Positions 41,251 through 45,804 of a stretch of DNA of 64,000 nucleotides are shown piece after piece. The notes beneath the pieces are model-generated. The model was not told the DNA's origin. It did no database searches and was given only the letters and a program-made list of their open reading frames with translations. Both the position numbers and the translations under genes were made by a program. The stretch covers positions 22,292 to 86,291 of the forward strand of contig PBLA01000001.1 in NCBI GenBank assembly GCA_002722245.1. The letters are read 5' to 3'. This stretch comes from Flavobacteriales bacterium. Lineage in GTDB: Bacteria > Bacteroidota > Bacteroidia > Flavobacteriales_C > GCA-002722245. Numbering within the stretch: the first letter of the stretch is position 1; the number at the start of each line of letters is the position of its first letter.

Positions 41251-42087
41251 TTAAGTCAATGATTTTTTTCTCACCTTTTGCCAACCTAAAACGCTGAAAA
41301 GTCCTAATCCCATTAATACACCAATAGCAGGAACTGTAGGTATATCGAGAAATAGCGCAATAAAGTGACCACAGATACAACTCATAATACCAAAGCAAAC
41401 AGCAATGATCAAAAATGGTTTAAGTTTTTGAGTTATGACATGCGCAAATGATGCAGGTACAACTAATAATCCAATGACCATTATTGCTCCAACACTATCG
41501 AAACTATATACTGTGGAAACGCTTGACAGACCCAAAAGAAGATAGTTCCAAAAAGGAATAGAAATCCCTATAGATTTCGCGTATGCTTGATCAAAGCTGG
41601 TTAATTTAAAGCCTTTCAATCCCAGTAAAACAATAGGAGCTGTGATTAAAGAAATAATAATCAAATTAAAAGTAGGAGTGGGTATTCCCCATGTTTTAGG
41701 AACGATAGGGATCGTGTTAATGTCGCCAAATAAGACGCAGTCCACATCAATATCAGCATTTTTTGCTTGTGAAGTAATGAGTATAATTCCAATTGCAAAA
41801 AGGAGTGTGTAAATAATTCCAATTGAACTATCTTTTCCAAAACCTCCTATTCGATTCAACCACTCAATTAACAAAATAGCGATAATCCCAAATCCACTTG
41901 CACCAAGAAGCATCCAGAAAGAGTTGATTTCACCTGAAATCATAAAAGCAATAACAATACCAGGTAAAACAGCATGAGATAAGGCATCACCAATAAGACT
42001 CATTTTTCGAAGTACAAGAAAACTTCCCAGTAAACTGGAGTTTATGCCGATAATGCATGCAGTGAGTATAATCCAAAAATCAAACAT
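41251..42087 (-). CDS. metal ABC transporter permease (ABC-3/TroD-ZnuB family)
   Basis: 8-9 TM segments. 'GDALSHAVLPGI' is the ABC-3 signature. The start overlaps the upstream stop (TAATG). Confidence 0.88.
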   Translation of the reverse strand: MFDFWIILTACIIGINSSLLGSFLVLRKMSLIGDALSHAVLPGIVIAFMISGEINSFWMLLGASGFGIIAILLIEWLNRIGGFGKDSSIGIIYTLLFAIGIILITSQAKNADIDVDCVLFGDINTIPIVPKTWGIPTPTFNLIIISLITAPIVLLGLKGFKLTSFDQAYAKSIGISIPFWNYLLLGLSSVSTVYSFDSVGAIMVIGLLVVPASFAHVITQKLKPFLIIAVCFGIMSCICGHFIALFLDIPTVPAIGVLMGLGLFSVLGWQKVRKKSLT

Positions 42088-43385
42088 TAGTCTTCGTAAG
42101 GGATATTTTGTTGATGCGGATCGCTCGTTGGCCTCCCCAGTGTTTTTAATAATTCTGTTTCAAGGGATTTAGTCATGATGTGCTCAATGGATTCAGCACT
42201 TTCATGAACATGATCGGATTGTATTTGCATAAACTTTTCCATGTAAAGCTCCCACAATCTATGTATCCTAATAATTCTCTTTGCCTCTGCAATTCCTTTT
42301 TCAGTAAGCGTCCAAGCCCCATTCGCTTCAATTACAAACTTTTTTCTTTTTAAGATACTCAACCCTTTACTGAGATCAAAAGAAGCAAAAGGATGAAAAT
42401 TTTGAATCATTTGAACAGAATAACTTTGATCAAATTGGTTTTTGTGTTCACCTAATTTATACAGCGTTTTTAGGACATTATCCGAGATTATTTTATTTCG
42501 GTTTTGAATCCCCATTATTTTTTTTGTGATTAATCCCTTTCGAGATAGTAATGCGGACAAAATAGCGATGGTGGATAGTACTACAATAATCCAGGGGCCT
42601 GTAGGCATGTCTGGAAACAGATAGGAAACAAAAACACCCAAAATACTGCTTAAAGCTGCAAACGCACCAGACAATAAAATAGATTTTTTAAAGTGGTTGG
42701 TCCAGAAAAATGCAGAAGAGGCAGGAGTAATAATTAATGCACTCATCAGAATTATTCCAACTGTTTGAATTCCAATAGCAGTGCTCACGATAATTAATCC
42801 TGAAATTAGACTTTGAACAAGTTTGTTATTTAAACCAATTGTGTTTGCAAATCCCTGATCAAACAATGCAATTTTGAAGTGTCTATAAAATAAAATAACA
42901 ACCCCTAAAACAAGTCCACATAATCCACAAAAGAGATAGAGGTCTTTTCGAACAATCGTAGCTGCTTTTCCAAACAGAAAATCAGAAAGACCACTCTGCT
43001 GACTATTTCCTGAGTGTTGTATAATACTTAACAAAATAACACCTAAACTAAAGAGCACTGATAAGGCAATTGCAATGGCTGCATCTTTTTTAATTCGTGA
43101 GATTTTTGTTAACCAGTCTACAAGGAATACGGCAATTGCTCCAGCAAACATTCCTCCAGCTATTAAATAAATTGGATTTTTAACCCCAGAGAGCATAAAT
43201 CCTAAACATACACCTGGTAAAACAGAGTGGGAAACGGCATCAACAATTAATGCTTTTTTATTTAAAACAACTAAAACCCCTACAATACCGCACGTAAAAC
43301 CTAAAATTAACGTTCCAAAAAAAACGTTCGAAATATTGGCGTCTTGAAAAGAAAAAAAATAAATAAAATCGTCCCAAAATTTCAT
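42087..43385 (-). CDS. metal ABC transporter permease fused to a C-terminal DtxR/MntR-type repressor domain
   Basis: The first ~300 residues are ABC-3 permease ('VDAVSHSVLPGV'). The last ~130 aa align to the free-standing repressor encoded at 45094-45756: 'IRIHRLWELYMEKFMQIQSDHVHESAESIEHIM...LGRPTSDPHQQNIP' vs 'IRKHRLWEVFLVEKLKFGWDEIHEIAEQLEHIK...LGYPKNDPHGDPIP'. ATG 43385 lies 1 nt after the ATPase stop. Confidence 0.85.
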   Translation of the reverse strand: MKFWDDFIYFFSFQDANISNVFFGTLILGFTCGIVGVLVVLNKKALIVDAVSHSVLPGVCLGFMLSGVKNPIYLIAGGMFAGAIAVFLVDWLTKISRIKKDAAIAIALSVLFSLGVILLSIIQHSGNSQQSGLSDFLFGKAATIVRKDLYLFCGLCGLVLGVVILFYRHFKIALFDQGFANTIGLNNKLVQSLISGLIIVSTAIGIQTVGIILMSALIITPASSAFFWTNHFKKSILLSGAFAALSSILGVFVSYLFPDMPTGPWIIVVLSTIAILSALLSRKGLITKKIMGIQNRNKIISDNVLKTLYKLGEHKNQFDQSYSVQMIQNFHPFASFDLSKGLSILKRKKFVIEANGAWTLTEKGIAEAKRIIRIHRLWELYMEKFMQIQSDHVHESAESIEHIMTKSLETELLKTLGRPTSDPHQQNIPYED

Positions 43386-43386
43386 G

Positions 43387-44172
43387 TTACTCTCGAATTG
43401 GAAATTGTCGTTGTTTGTATACTTCACCCAATTGCTCAAGAATACTCAGATTACCTCCGTAAGTTTTTTGCAGAAGTTCAGTAGTATATACGTCGTTAGT
43501 GGGACCACTCGCAACGATTCGTTTGTTAATAAGAACCATCCAATCAAAATATTCCATTGCAGATTGAAGGTCGTGATGAACAACAAAAATTGTTTTTCCT
43601 TCCTGTTGAAGCGTTAAAAGAAGATCAACAATTGCTTTTTCACTGGCCATATCAACACCAGCAAAAGGCTCATCCATGAAGTACAAATCTGCCTCTTGAG
43701 CCAAAGCTCGGGCAATGAATACACGTTGTTGTTGTCCACCAGAAAGAGCCGAAATATGATGCTTTGCGAAATCCATCATTTTTACTTTTTTAAGCGCATC
43801 AATAGCAATTTGTTTATCCTGTTTTGTTAGGCGTTTGAAAAGACTTTTTTTACCATATCTTCCCATTTCTACAACATCAAGGACAGTTGCAGGAAAATCC
43901 CAGTCAACCGATTCTTTCTGGGGTACATAAGCTATTTTTTGTCGAACCTTTTTTAAAGGTTGATTAAAGATTTTTACATAACCACTTGCTGATGGAACAA
44001 GTTCCATCATGGCTTTTAATAGGGTGGATTTACCCGCACCATTTGGCCCTATAATACCGACCATTTTCCCCTTAGGAATGTTAAAATCCACATTCCATAA
44101 TACGGGTTTATTATTATAGGCAACCGTTAAATCGTGAATTTCAACAATAGCCTCTTCTACATGCTTAATCAT
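43387..44172 (-). CDS. metal ABC transporter ATP-binding protein
   Basis: Walker A 'GPNGAGKST', signature 'LSGGQQQR', Walker B 'LYFMDEP'. Confidence 0.92.
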   Translation of the reverse strand: MIKHVEEAIVEIHDLTVAYNNKPVLWNVDFNIPKGKMVGIIGPNGAGKSTLLKAMMELVPSASGYVKIFNQPLKKVRQKIAYVPQKESVDWDFPATVLDVVEMGRYGKKSLFKRLTKQDKQIAIDALKKVKMMDFAKHHISALSGGQQQRVFIARALAQEADLYFMDEPFAGVDMASEKAIVDLLLTLQQEGKTIFVVHHDLQSAMEYFDWMVLINKRIVASGPTNDVYTTELLQKTYGGNLSILEQLGEVYKQRQFPIRE

Positions 44173-45093: not shown

Positions 45094-45756
45094 TTATTTT
45101 TCTTTGGAAACATTAAGGTTTTTAGCCACTAATTCTGAAAATGTCCGTTCAGTTTTTTGATTGACCAAAACTTTTAAGGACTTGTCAAATTGAAAGAAAT
45201 CTAAAATTTCAATGGATGAACCCAGTTTGAGGTCGATACTATCTAAATATCTTAAGAAATCTTTGGAGTCTTCAGAGACACCAATTAAAATTGATTTTTC
45301 ACCAATTGATAAATCATTTAATTTGTATTTTTTTAGAGTATGAAACTCGCCTTTTTTGTTTGGAATGGGATCACCATGAGGATCGTTTTTTGGATATCCC
45401 AAGTGCTCGTCCAATTTATCAATAAGTTTTGCGGATTTAATGTGCTCCAATTGCTCAGCAATTTCATGAATTTCATCCCATCCGAATTTAAGTTTCTCTA
45501 CCAAAAAAACTTCCCACAAACGATGTTTTCTTATTACATGTAATGCAATTTGTTCACCTTCTTTTGAAAGTGTTGTTCCTTGATATTTTATATAGTTTAC
45601 TAAACCTTTGTCGGCCAATTTTTTTACCATATCGGATACCGAGGAAGCTTTTGTAGAGAGCTCTTCAGCAATTGCATTGGTGGAAACTCCTTCTTTTGAT
45701 GGTCCGCTTAACTTAAAAATTGCTTTTAGATAATCTTCGGTGGTACTGGTTTGCAT
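45094..45756 (-). CDS. DtxR/MntR-family metal-dependent transcriptional repressor with C-terminal FeoA/SH3-like domain
   Basis: wHTH 'TEDYLKAIFKL...TNAIAEELSTKASSVSDMVKKL', dimerisation/metal region 'HRLWEVFL...IHEIAEQLEH', 'DPHGDPIP', then an SH3-like tail. Confidence 0.9.
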   Translation of the reverse strand: MQTSTTEDYLKAIFKLSGPSKEGVSTNAIAEELSTKASSVSDMVKKLADKGLVNYIKYQGTTLSKEGEQIALHVIRKHRLWEVFLVEKLKFGWDEIHEIAEQLEHIKSAKLIDKLDEHLGYPKNDPHGDPIPNKKGEFHTLKKYKLNDLSIGEKSILIGVSEDSKDFLRYLDSIDLKLGSSIEILDFFQFDKSLKVLVNQKTERTFSELVAKNLNVSKEK

Positions 45757-45783
45757 TTACTCTAAGATTTAGACAAAGATAAA

Positions 45784-45791
45784 CAAATTTA
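45784..45791 (-). promoter_or_regulatory. -7 promoter box TAAATTTG (minus strand) of the metal-uptake operon
   Basis: Plus-strand caaattta. 27 nt upstream of ATG 45756. Overlaps the palindrome at 45787-45804. Confidence 0.5.
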
Positions 45792-45804
45792 GACTTGTCT
45801 AAAT
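45787..45804. promoter_or_regulatory. candidate DtxR/MntR operator: perfect 8-2-8 palindrome ATTTAGAC-TT-GTCTAAAT
   Basis: Perfect inverted repeat read directly from the sequence. An extra ATTTAGAC half-site lies at 45767-45774, 20 nt away. Confidence 0.55.

Follow-up and report, generated by a model that had tools for sequence, protein, structure and literature searches.

A DtxR-like module fused to an ABC-3 permease beside a free-standing DtxR-family repressor in a Flavobacteriales operon

Described fusions and related importers

In the YtgC-YtgR fusion of Chlamydia trachomatis (CT069/CTL0325), as in the gene described here, an ABC-3 permease is followed by a C-terminal DtxR-like module that has no SH3 domain. 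The chlamydial domain is cleaved off and represses transcription (PMC5599777, PMC6504234, PMC7755916); the released fragment, at 28-30 kDa, is larger than the module alone (PMC5599777), and an eLife paper introduces YtgR as the sole regulator of this type known from Chlamydia. The chlamydial protein also carries a tryptophan-sensing WWW motif. To our knowledge, work on the fusion has been confined to Chlamydia, a genus in which genetic manipulation is difficult, and we know of no protease, cleavage signal or purpose of the tether reported there, nor of transport data for any YtgC-type fusion. The first-pass annotation of the present locus took such a membrane-tethered repressor to be little studied outside Chlamydia; the fusion as such is no new observation there, since Thompson et al. 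(2012), as summarized in a review (PMC5599777), already counted orthologous permease-repressor fusions in 11 bacterial phyla, and the fusion is abundant in Bacteroidota metagenomes, where we found hundreds of homologues. As a sequence finding, the architecture is thus ordinary: it is already known, annotated in Pfam and widespread. What the present analysis adds is its co-occurrence with a free-standing repressor (44 of 64 loci), a recurrent palindrome, and a contrast in the conservation of the recognition helices of the two proteins.

Two further systems frame the comparison. The troABCD-troR operon of Treponema pallidum, like the operon studied here, encodes two ABC-3 permeases, a single ATPase and a DtxR-family repressor. 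In T. pallidum a separate repressor of two domains is encoded at the 3′ end and no domain is fused to either permease, whereas in the present operon the gene for the free repressor, a protein with a FeoA/SH3 domain, stands at the 5′ end and a DtxR-like module is attached to one of the permeases. In ModBC and MetNI, a regulator-related ligand-binding domain fused to the transporter mediates trans-inhibition, a precedent that counts for reading the present module as a tethered sensor. The analogy with ModC of ModBC and the C2 domain of MetN is functional only, in that a regulator-related cytoplasmic domain senses the imported substrate: there the domain belongs to the ATPase subunit and has no DNA-binding fold, whereas the module described here sits on one permease and keeps a winged-helix fold. 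The explanation developed below, of a YtgC/YtgR-family protein whose fused module acts as a metal sensor while the free repressor acts on the operator, has in our judgement an even chance of being right as a whole.

The fusion gene and its operon

In the window, a 64,000-nucleotide stretch of contig PBLA01000001.1 from a marine Flavobacteriales-like genome, five genes follow one another in the order repressor, TroA-like binding protein, ATPase, permease-R and permease, with the fusion in fourth place (Table 1); the open reading frame list and Pfam together bear out the order binding protein-ATPase-permease(R)-permease noted earlier from sequence. The start codon of the second permease shares one base with the stop codon of the fusion. 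The free repressor matches PF01325 (3.3e-18), PF02742 (2.2e-30) and FeoA (1.4e-7), and its best solved relatives are 5zr4 (E 2.4e-40), SloR, DR2539 and ScaR. Among solved structures, the binding protein is closest to T. pallidum TroA (1toa, E 3.1e-64), a protein that binds both Zn and Mn, and the best NCBIfam matches of the ATPase are Mn/Fe ABC ATP-binding proteins, at scores under the curated cut-offs. The five genes very probably make up a Tro/Ytg-type Mn/Zn/Fe uptake operon.

Table 1. Operon genes, regulatory sites and fusion-protein regions, with their positions in the window
Feature	Position	Strand	Basis
Candidate operator, perfect 8-2-8 palindrome ATTTAGAC-AA-GTCTAAAT	45787..45804	.	read directly
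Putative Bacteroidetes-type -7 box TATCTTTG	45781-45774 (feature 45767..45781)	minus	sequence read
Free-standing DtxR/MntR repressor, 220 aa, three domains	45094..45756	minus	wHTH, metal/dimerisation, FeoA/SH3-like
Cluster A-I substrate-binding protein, TroA-like, 314 aa	44169..45113	minus	PF01297 1.5e-59
ABC ATPase subunit, 261 aa	43387..44172	minus	PF00005 5.4e-33, no extra regulatory domain
Permease-DtxR fusion gene	42087-43385	minus	single ORF, 432 aa, no internal stop
Permease domain, ABC-3/PsaC-like, aa 1-284	42534..43385	minus	PF00950 on aa 15-279, E 4.8e-60 (Pfam); model similar to PsaC 7kyp
Linker, aa 285-298	42492..42533	minus	first half of predicted continuous helix 285-314 into DtxR helix 1
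Divergent winged helix, aa 299-360	42306..42491	minus	helix 1 (N303), helix 2, helix 3, beta wing
Metal-binding/dimerisation domain, aa 361-432	42090..42305	minus	PF02742 on aa 361-429, E 3.3e-21 (Pfam); no SH3 tail
Second permease subunit, 278 aa, YtgD/TroD-like	41251..42087	minus	PF00950 4.1e-51, no extension

The open reading frame list enters the fusion at 42087..43439 with a TTG start; the ATG at 43385 is, on sequence comparison, the biologically supported start, because homologues open with MKFWDDF or MSVWNDF. Read from there, one uninterrupted frame encodes both the permease and the DtxR-like domain, as had been claimed, with PF00950 and PF02742 scoring in the same protein and the C-terminal region thus recognized as DtxR family. 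The proposed profile check of the architecture came out as expected for these two domains and failed for the third, PF01325, which gave no match at E <= 0.01 in the fusion protein. The absence of an SH3/FeoA tail was also confirmed: Pfam finds no FeoA/SH3 domain in the protein, whose C-terminus lies 3 residues past the I-P motif. Among the 120 homologues listed, 110 are 420-439 aa long, and nearly all carry both precomputed Pfam domains; a frameshift or assembly artefact was ruled out on the ground that nearly all full-length listed homologues match in length and architecture. An internal translation start for the R module was likewise rejected: the homologues do not keep M291, and 59% of them have Lys there.

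To gauge its spread, the R domain alone was compared with 1.84 billion representatives, which returned 444 clusters at E <= 1e-10; in nearly all of the best 150 of these 444 the match lies at the C-terminus, and most of those 150 are full-length proteins of about 405-470 aa, the rest being shorter fragments. A word-indexed search with the same domain mostly returned fragments and free-standing Flavobacterium repressors (34-39% identity) and no chlamydial names, which were supplied by the exhaustive representative search and a cluster look-up. The comparison with Chlamydia was made through a protein from a metagenome-assembled Chlamydiota genome, P0371 (‘metal ABC transporter permease [Chlamydia sp.]’), and relatives of it from Parachlamydia and Waddlia, in place of CT069; the nearest relatives of P0371 include Parachlamydiaceae, Parachlamydia and Waddliaceae. 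Residues 15-429 of the window protein align with residues 13-449 of P0371 at 29% identity (E 7e-59), end-to-end homology that upholds the proposed YtgC-YtgR-like architecture, and the two proteins have in common the signature HRLWELY..VH.SAE..EHI.T..DPH.Q.IP together with [DE]N.LK in helix 1. The chlamydial locus L090 has the same ytgABCD-like order, binding protein-ATPase-permease(R)-permease, and, as the one Chlamydiota locus examined, shows no adjacent free DtxR-type repressor. In contrast to the chlamydial situation, the first gene of the window operon encodes a canonical DtxR/MntR repressor with three domains as a separate protein, so that the fused module is not the sole DtxR-type regulator of its operon. 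By family, the fusion gene is very probably a member of the YtgC/YtgR group.

This kinship raises the main alternative to a tethered sensor. As in YtgR, the module could be proteolytically released, or could act on DNA while still tethered; it would dimerise, bind metal and repress the operon and possibly further genes, alongside the free-standing repressor or partly redundantly with it. The end-to-end homology and common gene order favour this course, as do the experiments that established both cleavage and repression in C. trachomatis YtgCR; by homology these are the default expectation here, which weighs against a tethered sensor. On balance we nevertheless consider it rather unlikely, for reasons found in the linker and in the winged helix.

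In an AlphaFold2 model of the fusion protein (pLDDT 86), the permease half resembles PsaC of PsaBC (7kyp; Foldseek E 5e-15, target-normalised TM-score 0.86-0.92). DSSP assigns helix 262-280 and then helix 285-314, which runs through the linker, and in the homologue alignment G284 is invariant while K288 and N295 are at least 90% conserved. The conserved residues G284, K288, N295, K298, D302, N303, K306 and Y309 fall on one face, and a continuous helix with a conserved face supports a stable tether. A short, predicted helical linker with conserved positions is unlike a disordered cleavable tether and so argues against release as in YtgR, although a linker modelled in this way neither proves nor excludes cleavage.

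Metal site, winged helix and operator

The metal-binding and dimerisation domain is the best-kept part of the module. Its residues H375, E379, H394, E398, E401 and H402, followed by D422-P-H424..I428-P429, align with the DtxR ligand set H79, E83, H98, C/E102, E105 and H106; each of the six ligands is at least 95% conserved in 110 homologues, in which N303 is invariant, and across the window protein and about 100 relatives conservation is at least 87-100% at all six to seven ligand positions and in the DPH..IP motif. Overall, the domain matches the permease in conservation (58% versus 54%). Conservation of this kind, in the ligands and in the domain around them, indicates strong purifying selection on metal binding. 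The two paralogues of the window had been described as aligning residue for residue over about 130 aa; the alignment stands over 71 aa (fused residues 359-429 against residues 62-132 of the free repressor, 41% identity, BLASTP E 7e-15), and the preceding 60 or so residues gave no BLASTP alignment. The motifs said to be common to both, HRLWE, H-E-x-A-E-x-x-E-H and DPH..IP, are indeed present and all lie inside the 71-aa stretch, and the alignment verifies a Glu in both paralogues at the position of DtxR Cys102. The fused module thereby has the ligand set of the 5zr4/SloR/ScaR/DR2539 group. From this Glu a Mn-type selectivity had been deduced: the ligand pattern is Mn-type, whereas specificity for Mn does not follow, given an invariant Asn in the fused domain and the TroA-like binding protein. 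That Asn occupies the position of DtxR Met10, where the free repressor has Asp, and which we take to be equivalent to Asp8 of MntR.

A sister clade of related loci (L003, L007, L008/L013) still has a C-terminal extension, equally long, from which every metal ligand has been lost. In L003, L007 and L013, the degenerate metal site coincides with the absence of both the free repressor and the operator, changes that probably represent one evolutionary event. Because the extension can evidently persist without binding metal, the clade lends some weight to a purely structural or vestigial role, in which the module would sense nothing, regulate nothing and persist only to cap the permease as a folded cytoplasmic domain. 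For the window protein and its ligand-bearing relatives such a role is very improbable, as the conservation of the ligands, of DPH..IP and of the domain as a whole relative to the permease tells against it.

The region before the 71-aa stretch is a divergent winged helix. In the model it comprises helices 299-314, 324-330 and 335-347 and a wing at 351-360, and the R module matches DR2539 (8pw0) and IdeR (2it0) over approximately 131 columns at a target-normalised TM-score of 0.72-0.76 (Foldseek). With phmmer, query residues 23-151 (fused residues 302-430) align with ScaR residues 5-130 at E 2.9e-9. PF01325 gave no match at E <= 1 in eight fused homologues, the chlamydial one included. Homology with the DtxR winged helix nevertheless includes these approximately 60 residues, because the ScaR alignment and the match of the AlphaFold model to the two-domain fold both extend through them. 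The module is thus like DR2539 and IdeR in predicted fold and like ScaR in sequence over both domains, and it is unlike the free Mn-responsive repressors in being membrane-tethered, in lacking a PF01325 score, in its invariant Asn and in its poorly conserved recognition helix.

The related loci were drawn from a metagenome scan, and 64 of them have a visible operon head; a free DtxR-family repressor is encoded nearby in 44 of the 64, while 20 have no adjacent one. Conservation of the two proteins, measured as mean pairwise identity, was compared in 37 matched genomes that carry both modules. For the free repressor, identities were 59% in the winged helix-turn-helix (wHTH), 70% in the recognition helix KASSVSDMVKKL and 69% in the metal/dimer domain, versus 25%, 30% and 58% for the corresponding parts of the fused module (37 loci each), and the recognition helices of the fused and free proteins are unrelated in sequence. 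Loci that lack an adjacent free repressor do not keep the wHTH of the fused module any better than the others do (26% versus 24%). A control set of 118 Chlamydiota-centred homologues had 22% identity in the wHTH core and 65% in the metal/dimer domain; we accordingly downgraded the proposition that a relaxed wHTH proves loss of DNA binding, as the wHTH evolves fast family-wide, including in a phylum where the domain binds DNA, and its low conservation is no proof of lost DNA binding.

The palindrome ATTTAGACAAGTCTAAAT reported in the first-pass annotation is present at its position upstream of the operon, 30 nt 5′ of the free repressor’s ATG, and this sequence occurs just once in the window. 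A candidate operator core, TTAGAC-NN-GTCTAA, lies 5′ of most related operons: with up to 2 mismatches and within 300 nt of the operon head, the core TTAGAYNNRTCTAA was found in 30 of 40 loci with a free repressor and, within the same distance upstream, in 10 of 23 without a same-strand upstream free repressor, against a background of 35 in 2000 random 330-nt windows. Next to the palindrome, TATCTTTG is plausibly a -7 box, the Bacteroidetes promoter -7 consensus being TAnnTTTG; similar boxes occur 3′ of the palindrome in L002, L004 and L005, and an extra operator half-site, GTCTAAAT at 45774-45767, overlaps it. A sigma-70 promoter scan returned 17 promoter-like sites where 21 were expected, with a consensus sigma-70 model from which Bacteroidota elements differ, and a terminator scan was likewise uninformative. 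An Rfam search of the window and of the leaders of L003, L007 and L009 matched no RNA family, riboswitches included, so an additional Mn-riboswitch layer is not supported.

With the operator and the free recognition helix conserved and the fused helix poorly so, the palindrome is more likely to be bound by the free repressor, which is probably the main reader of the operator. The description of the fusion as a membrane-tethered repressor accordingly found no support, the winged helix being 25-30% identical in the fused module versus 59-70% in the free repressor in the presence of a conserved operator. The same evidence bears on release as in YtgR: the fused recognition helix is 30% conserved, versus 70% for the free one, in genomes that have a conserved operator in common; with the two helices unrelated, it is unlikely that both read the same palindrome; the fused wHTH is no better kept where an adjacent free repressor is missing; and PF01325 does not score. 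Set against these points, the module keeps a winged-helix fold and all of its metal ligands, Chlamydiota, in which the domain binds DNA, have a fast-evolving wHTH as well, and five loci (L009, L027, L038, L042 and L089) keep the operator without an adjacent free repressor, so that the fused domain could repress there unless a free repressor is encoded elsewhere.

A possible tethered cytoplasmic metal sensor

In the reading that we prefer, the free-standing repressor would mainly control transcription of the operon: loaded with metal, it would bind the palindrome directly 5′ of the predicted -7 box, which the extra half-site overlaps. As a second cytoplasmic metal sensor, and not a reader of the conserved operator, the fused module would make the transporter itself responsive to metal occupancy in the cytoplasm. 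The last transmembrane helix of the permease is predicted to run through the short helical linker into the cytoplasmic two-domain DtxR-like module, and metal held between helix 1 (N303) and E398/E401/H402 may fix the orientation of the helix continuous with TM8. Import could thereby be braked in a manner resembling trans-inhibition, or transporters could dock or pair in a metal-dependent way. Each transporter combines two unlike permease subunits, of which one bears R, whereas repressors of the DtxR family work as dimers, so that R, while tethered, cannot form the canonical dimer within a single transporter. We propose this sensor role tentatively, as possible and somewhat short of probable, and the module keeps a complete winged-helix fold that a pure metal sensor would not obviously need, which counts against it.

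The dimer interface left unpaired by a single R per heterodimeric transporter also suggests a different partner. The tethered module might heterodimerise with the free repressor and recruit or sequester it at the membrane, feeding transporter abundance or occupancy back to transcription. Both paralogues are encoded in one operon in 44 of 64 loci, the HRLWE helix of the dimerisation domain is common to both, and the clade that lacks the free repressor and operator has a decayed fused metal/dimer domain. The HRLWELY motif is, however, equally conserved in fusions of the Chlamydiota type, including at L090 with no adjacent free repressor, and hence is no adaptation to a paralogous partner; the decayed clade, moreover, probably counts as a single event. 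Such capture of the repressor is improbable.

Returning to the tethered sensor, we regard it as doubtful that the module in Bacteroidota, and perhaps in the whole family, would be a cis-acting cytoplasmic sensor rather than primarily a transcription factor, gating its importer and leaving transcription to the free repressor of the operon. The contrast in conservation, with the metal site kept and the DNA-reading surface not, amounts to a prediction that separates release from tethering, and the question that it opens is why a metal sensor should be tethered to its own importer, and whether it is released or acts on the transporter. Free-living Bacteroidota offer a tractable system for that question, with a simple five-gene operon, a conventional repressor and a well-defined operator. 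If the sensor reading is true, two paralogous DtxR modules would form a two-tier homeostat, and the fused one would provide the first trans-inhibition mechanism located on the permease subunit of a metal-ion ABC importer.

Operon and architecture of the fusion

The permease-DtxR fusion lies in one operon of five tightly packed genes (see table). For its start codon, the longest ORF would open with a TTG at 43439 and share 53 nt with the 3′ end of the ATPase gene, but the N-termini of homologues (MKFWDDF...) favor the ATG at 43385, giving the length already stated in the first-pass annotation. Within this single ORF, Pfam identifies an ABC-3 permease at residues 15-279 (PF00950, E 4.8e-60) and the metal-binding and dimerization domain of DtxR proteins at residues 361-429 (PF02742, E 3.3e-21), with no match to the FeoA domain that the free repressor carries; the fusion is real and had been correctly described. 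The PF01325 model did not recognize the fused winged helix, and the NCBIfam matches, to models of Mn/Zn permeases and of MntR/DtxR, all stayed below threshold.

Coordinates of operon genes, promoter elements and features of related loci (L numbers; all other positions are in the window)
Feature	Position	Strand	Details
Free repressor	45756-45094	minus	220 aa; PF01325 + PF02742 + FeoA (Pfam)
Binding protein	45113-44169	minus	314 aa; ZnuA/PF01297 (Pfam)
ATPase	44172-43387	minus	261 aa; ABC_tran (Pfam)
Permease-DtxR fusion	43385-42087	minus	432 aa; PF00950 + PF02742 (Pfam)
Second permease	42087-41251	minus	278 aa; ABC-3 (Pfam)
Operator palindrome	45787-45804		ATTTAGAC-AA-GTCTAAAT
-7-like box	45781-45774		TATCTTTG
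Extra half-site	45774-45767		GTCTAAAT
Sister-clade fusion	L003:6001-7284
Sister-clade fusion	L007:6001-7290
Sister-clade fusion	L008:1166-2437
Sister-clade fusion	L013:2765-4036
Operator region, Saprospiraceae-like locus	L009:4009-4070		GTTTAGACTAGTCTAAAC, then CAAAGGTAATTATGATTACCTTTG
Peptidase_M50 gene, Chlamydiota locus	L090:8546-10501		651 aa

The fused module had been proposed to match the free repressor residue for residue over 130 amino acids. This holds for 71 residues (fusion 359-429 versus repressor 62-132, 41% identity, E 7e-15 by BLASTP), which include every motif listed, but was overstated for the N-terminal half, where the approximately 60 preceding residues are too diverged for BLASTP alignment; these still align to ScaR by phmmer (ScaR residues 5-130, E 2.9e-9). 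An AlphaFold2 model of the full fusion built from 54 homologues (mean pLDDT 86, pTM 0.74) places the last transmembrane helix at 262-280, followed by a single continuous helix (285-314) comprising the linker and DtxR helix 1, helices at 324-330 and 335-347, a beta wing (351-360) and a long helix (362-385). In Foldseek searches of the PDB, the N-terminal part matched PsaC of the pneumococcal Mn importer (7kyp, E 5e-15, target-normalized TM-score about 0.9), and the C-terminal part matched two-domain DtxR-family repressors over about 131 columns, namely DNA-bound Deinococcus radiodurans DR2539 (8pw0, 0.76) and the IdeR-DNA complex (2it0, 0.72). The module is thus predicted to have the full fold of DtxR domains 1 and 2, despite the silence of PF01325. 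Along the linker and helix 1, residues G284, K288, N295, K298, D302, N303, K306 and Y309 are conserved at roughly 3-4 and 7-residue spacing, which on the predicted continuous helix implies that a single conserved face packs onto the surface of a partner.

Alignment to the DtxR sequence equates fused H375, E379, H394, E398, E401 and H402 with DtxR H79, E83, H98, C102, E105 and H106, and the M10 position with N303 in the fused module and Asp in the free repressor. Glu occupies the Cys102 position in both paralogues, as first noted, and together with Asp at the Met10 position of the free repressor this forms an Mn-type pattern. The closest solved relatives of the free repressor are likewise Mn-responsive regulators (5zr4, SloR, DR2539 and ScaR), and the binding protein has Treponema pallidum TroA as by far its best solved relative (E 3e-64), with ligand positions that we read, from the sequence and by comparison with TroA, as His-His-His-Asp. 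The earlier reading of Mn-type selectivity fits this pattern, and Mn is plausible, but Zn or Fe is also possible, and the fused module has Asn at the Met10 position.

A widespread family with chlamydial members

A whole-protein search returned 2038 proteins at E ≤ 1e-10. Among the 120 homologues listed, 110 are 420-439 residues long, nearly all of these with both precomputed Pfam domains, and where the source gives a name it is Flavobacteriales, Crocinitomicaceae, Saprospiraceae, Cyclobacteriaceae or 'Bacteroidetes'; the few of this length without PF02742 are degenerate proteins of a sister clade (L003, L007, L008/L013). One homologue, P0001, shares 99% identity with the window protein and by eye differs only at V143I, K340R and S343N, the last two within the predicted recognition helix (335-347). 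An exhaustive search with the fused module alone against 1.84 billion cluster representatives gave 2772 matches at E ≤ 1e-3 and 444 at E ≤ 1e-10, with named members including a Planctomycetota MAG and a 'Chlamydia sp.' protein (P0371). Nearly all of the best 150 matches place the module C-terminally, mostly in full-length proteins of about 405-470 residues and otherwise in shorter fragments, which indicates that fused modules form a large clade of their own and are not recent copies of local free repressors.

P0371, whose nearest relatives include proteins named Parachlamydiaceae, Parachlamydia and Waddliaceae, aligns with residues 15-429 of the window protein (29% identity, E 7e-59), and both carry the signature HRLWELY..VH.SAE..EHI.T...E.EL...L..PT.DPH.Q.IP. 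The order binding protein-ATPase-permease(R)-permease, proposed to be that of ytgABCD, is found in both operons. The literature we searched covers such fusions in Chlamydia only; according to a 2017 review (PMC5599777), Thompson et al. reported orthologous fusions in 11 bacterial phyla. The YtgC-YtgR-like architecture was thus rightly recognized, its occurrence outside Chlamydia is not new, and the window gene genuinely belongs to a known, widespread fusion family. In the Chlamydiota MAG locus, the ytgABCD-like operon encoding P0371 is followed directly by a Peptidase_M50 gene (site-2 protease family, faint PDZ matches); the review describes the protease that acts on YtgC as unidentified, and this intramembrane metalloprotease is an obvious candidate. 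No gene of this type flanks the window operon.

Operator and divergence of the two modules

The palindrome noted in the first-pass annotation is perfect, occurs once in the window and lies thirty nt upstream of the free repressor ATG. Six nt downstream of it, a -7-like box that we take to fit the Bacteroidetes consensus TAnnTTTG overlaps the extra half-site, which suggests, by analogy with DtxR/IdeR double-dimer sites, two adjacent repressor-binding positions across the promoter. We compared loci obtained by exact protein look-up (nine) and metagenome scan (80). Of the 64 with a visible operon head, 44 encode a free DtxR-family repressor close by, in most cases as the operon's first gene, and 20 do not. 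The core TTAGAYNNRTCTAA (at most two mismatches, no more than 300 nt ahead of the operon head) was found at 30 of 40 loci with a same-strand upstream free repressor and 10 of 23 others, compared with 35 of 2000 random 330-nt windows, and typically lies 40-60 nt ahead of the start codon. At a Saprospiraceae-like locus with an intact fusion and no adjacent free repressor (L009), an operator precedes the binding-protein gene by about 290 nt, with a 10-4-10 palindrome after the operator, and the long leader has no Rfam match.

Across 37 genomes encoding both proteins, mean pairwise identities for the free repressor and fused module, respectively, were 77% and 53% in helix 1, 59% and 25% in the winged-helix core, 70% and 30% in the recognition helix, and 69% and 58% in the metal/dimer domain. 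In a five-genome alignment, the free recognition helix (K-A-S-S-V-S-D-M-V-K-K-L) is nearly constant, whereas its fused counterpart varies freely; hydrophobic core residues (L305, Y309, L342, L345, W358, L360) are retained in the fused winged helix while its surface varies, and this region is no better conserved without an adjacent free repressor (26%) than with one (24%). The conserved operator and conserved free recognition helix together point to the free repressor as operator reader; recognition of this site by the fused module, whose helix is unrelated and variable, is unlikely. Of the proposal that the fused domain is a membrane-tethered repressor acting on the palindrome, the DtxR fold and metal site stand, while the variable helix argues against the proposed target.

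YtgR-like release and repression nevertheless has precedent, since in Chlamydia YtgR is cleaved and represses the ytg and trpBA promoters (PMC5599777, PMC6504234, PMC7755916). Among 118 fused proteins around P0371, identity was 44% in the permease, 22% in the winged-helix core, 28% in the recognition helix and 65% in the metal/dimer domain, so a fast-evolving winged helix is common to the whole family, including a phylum with known repression. The relaxed helix therefore speaks against the fused module reading the Bacteroidota operator without proving loss of DNA binding; we regard release and repression here as the main alternative reading, though less likely than not.

Among 110 homologues, the six fused metal-site residues are at least 95% conserved and N303 is invariant. 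Identity in the metal/dimer domain (58%) is on a par with that in the permease (54%). These alignments indicate strong selection on the fused metal site and make a vestigial domain most improbable, although the sister clade does keep the length of the extension and its winged-helix part (55% identity) after losing every metal ligand, with the metal/dimer part decayed to 37% and PF02742 silent. Where the operon head is visible, this clade also lacks the free repressor gene and TTAGAC..GTCTAA operator; the losses probably reflect a single event. One source name assigns the clade to Crocinitomicaceae, and in L008 a FUR-family gene lies 2 kb downstream.

Possible role of the tethered module

The window operon has both free repressor and operator. 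Of its two different permease subunits, one carries a strongly conserved cytoplasmic DtxR-type metal site, tethered to TM8 through a short helix. Metal-loaded free repressor would occlude the promoter, and the fused module would be a second metal sensor. DtxR proteins act as dimers and only one permease subunit bears the module, so the canonical DNA-binding dimer is out of reach for a tethered module inside a single transporter. The options left are release, pairing between transporters, pairing with the free repressor (which we judge improbable) and action on the transporter as a monomer. Through the conserved helix face and N303, at the position of the DtxR helix-1 metal ligand, metal occupancy could be mechanically linked to TM8 as a trans-inhibition-like brake on import. 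This would resemble trans-inhibition in ModBC and MetNI, in which the transporter carries a fused domain related to the ligand-binding domain of a regulator, and we tentatively prefer a tethered sensor to the other readings. What this analysis adds is that in Bacteroidota the fusion is conservedly paired with a free paralogue encoded in its operon and with a defined operator, and that a strongly conserved metal site stands beside a freely evolving DNA-reading surface; together these features make the purpose of the tether experimentally approachable outside Chlamydia.
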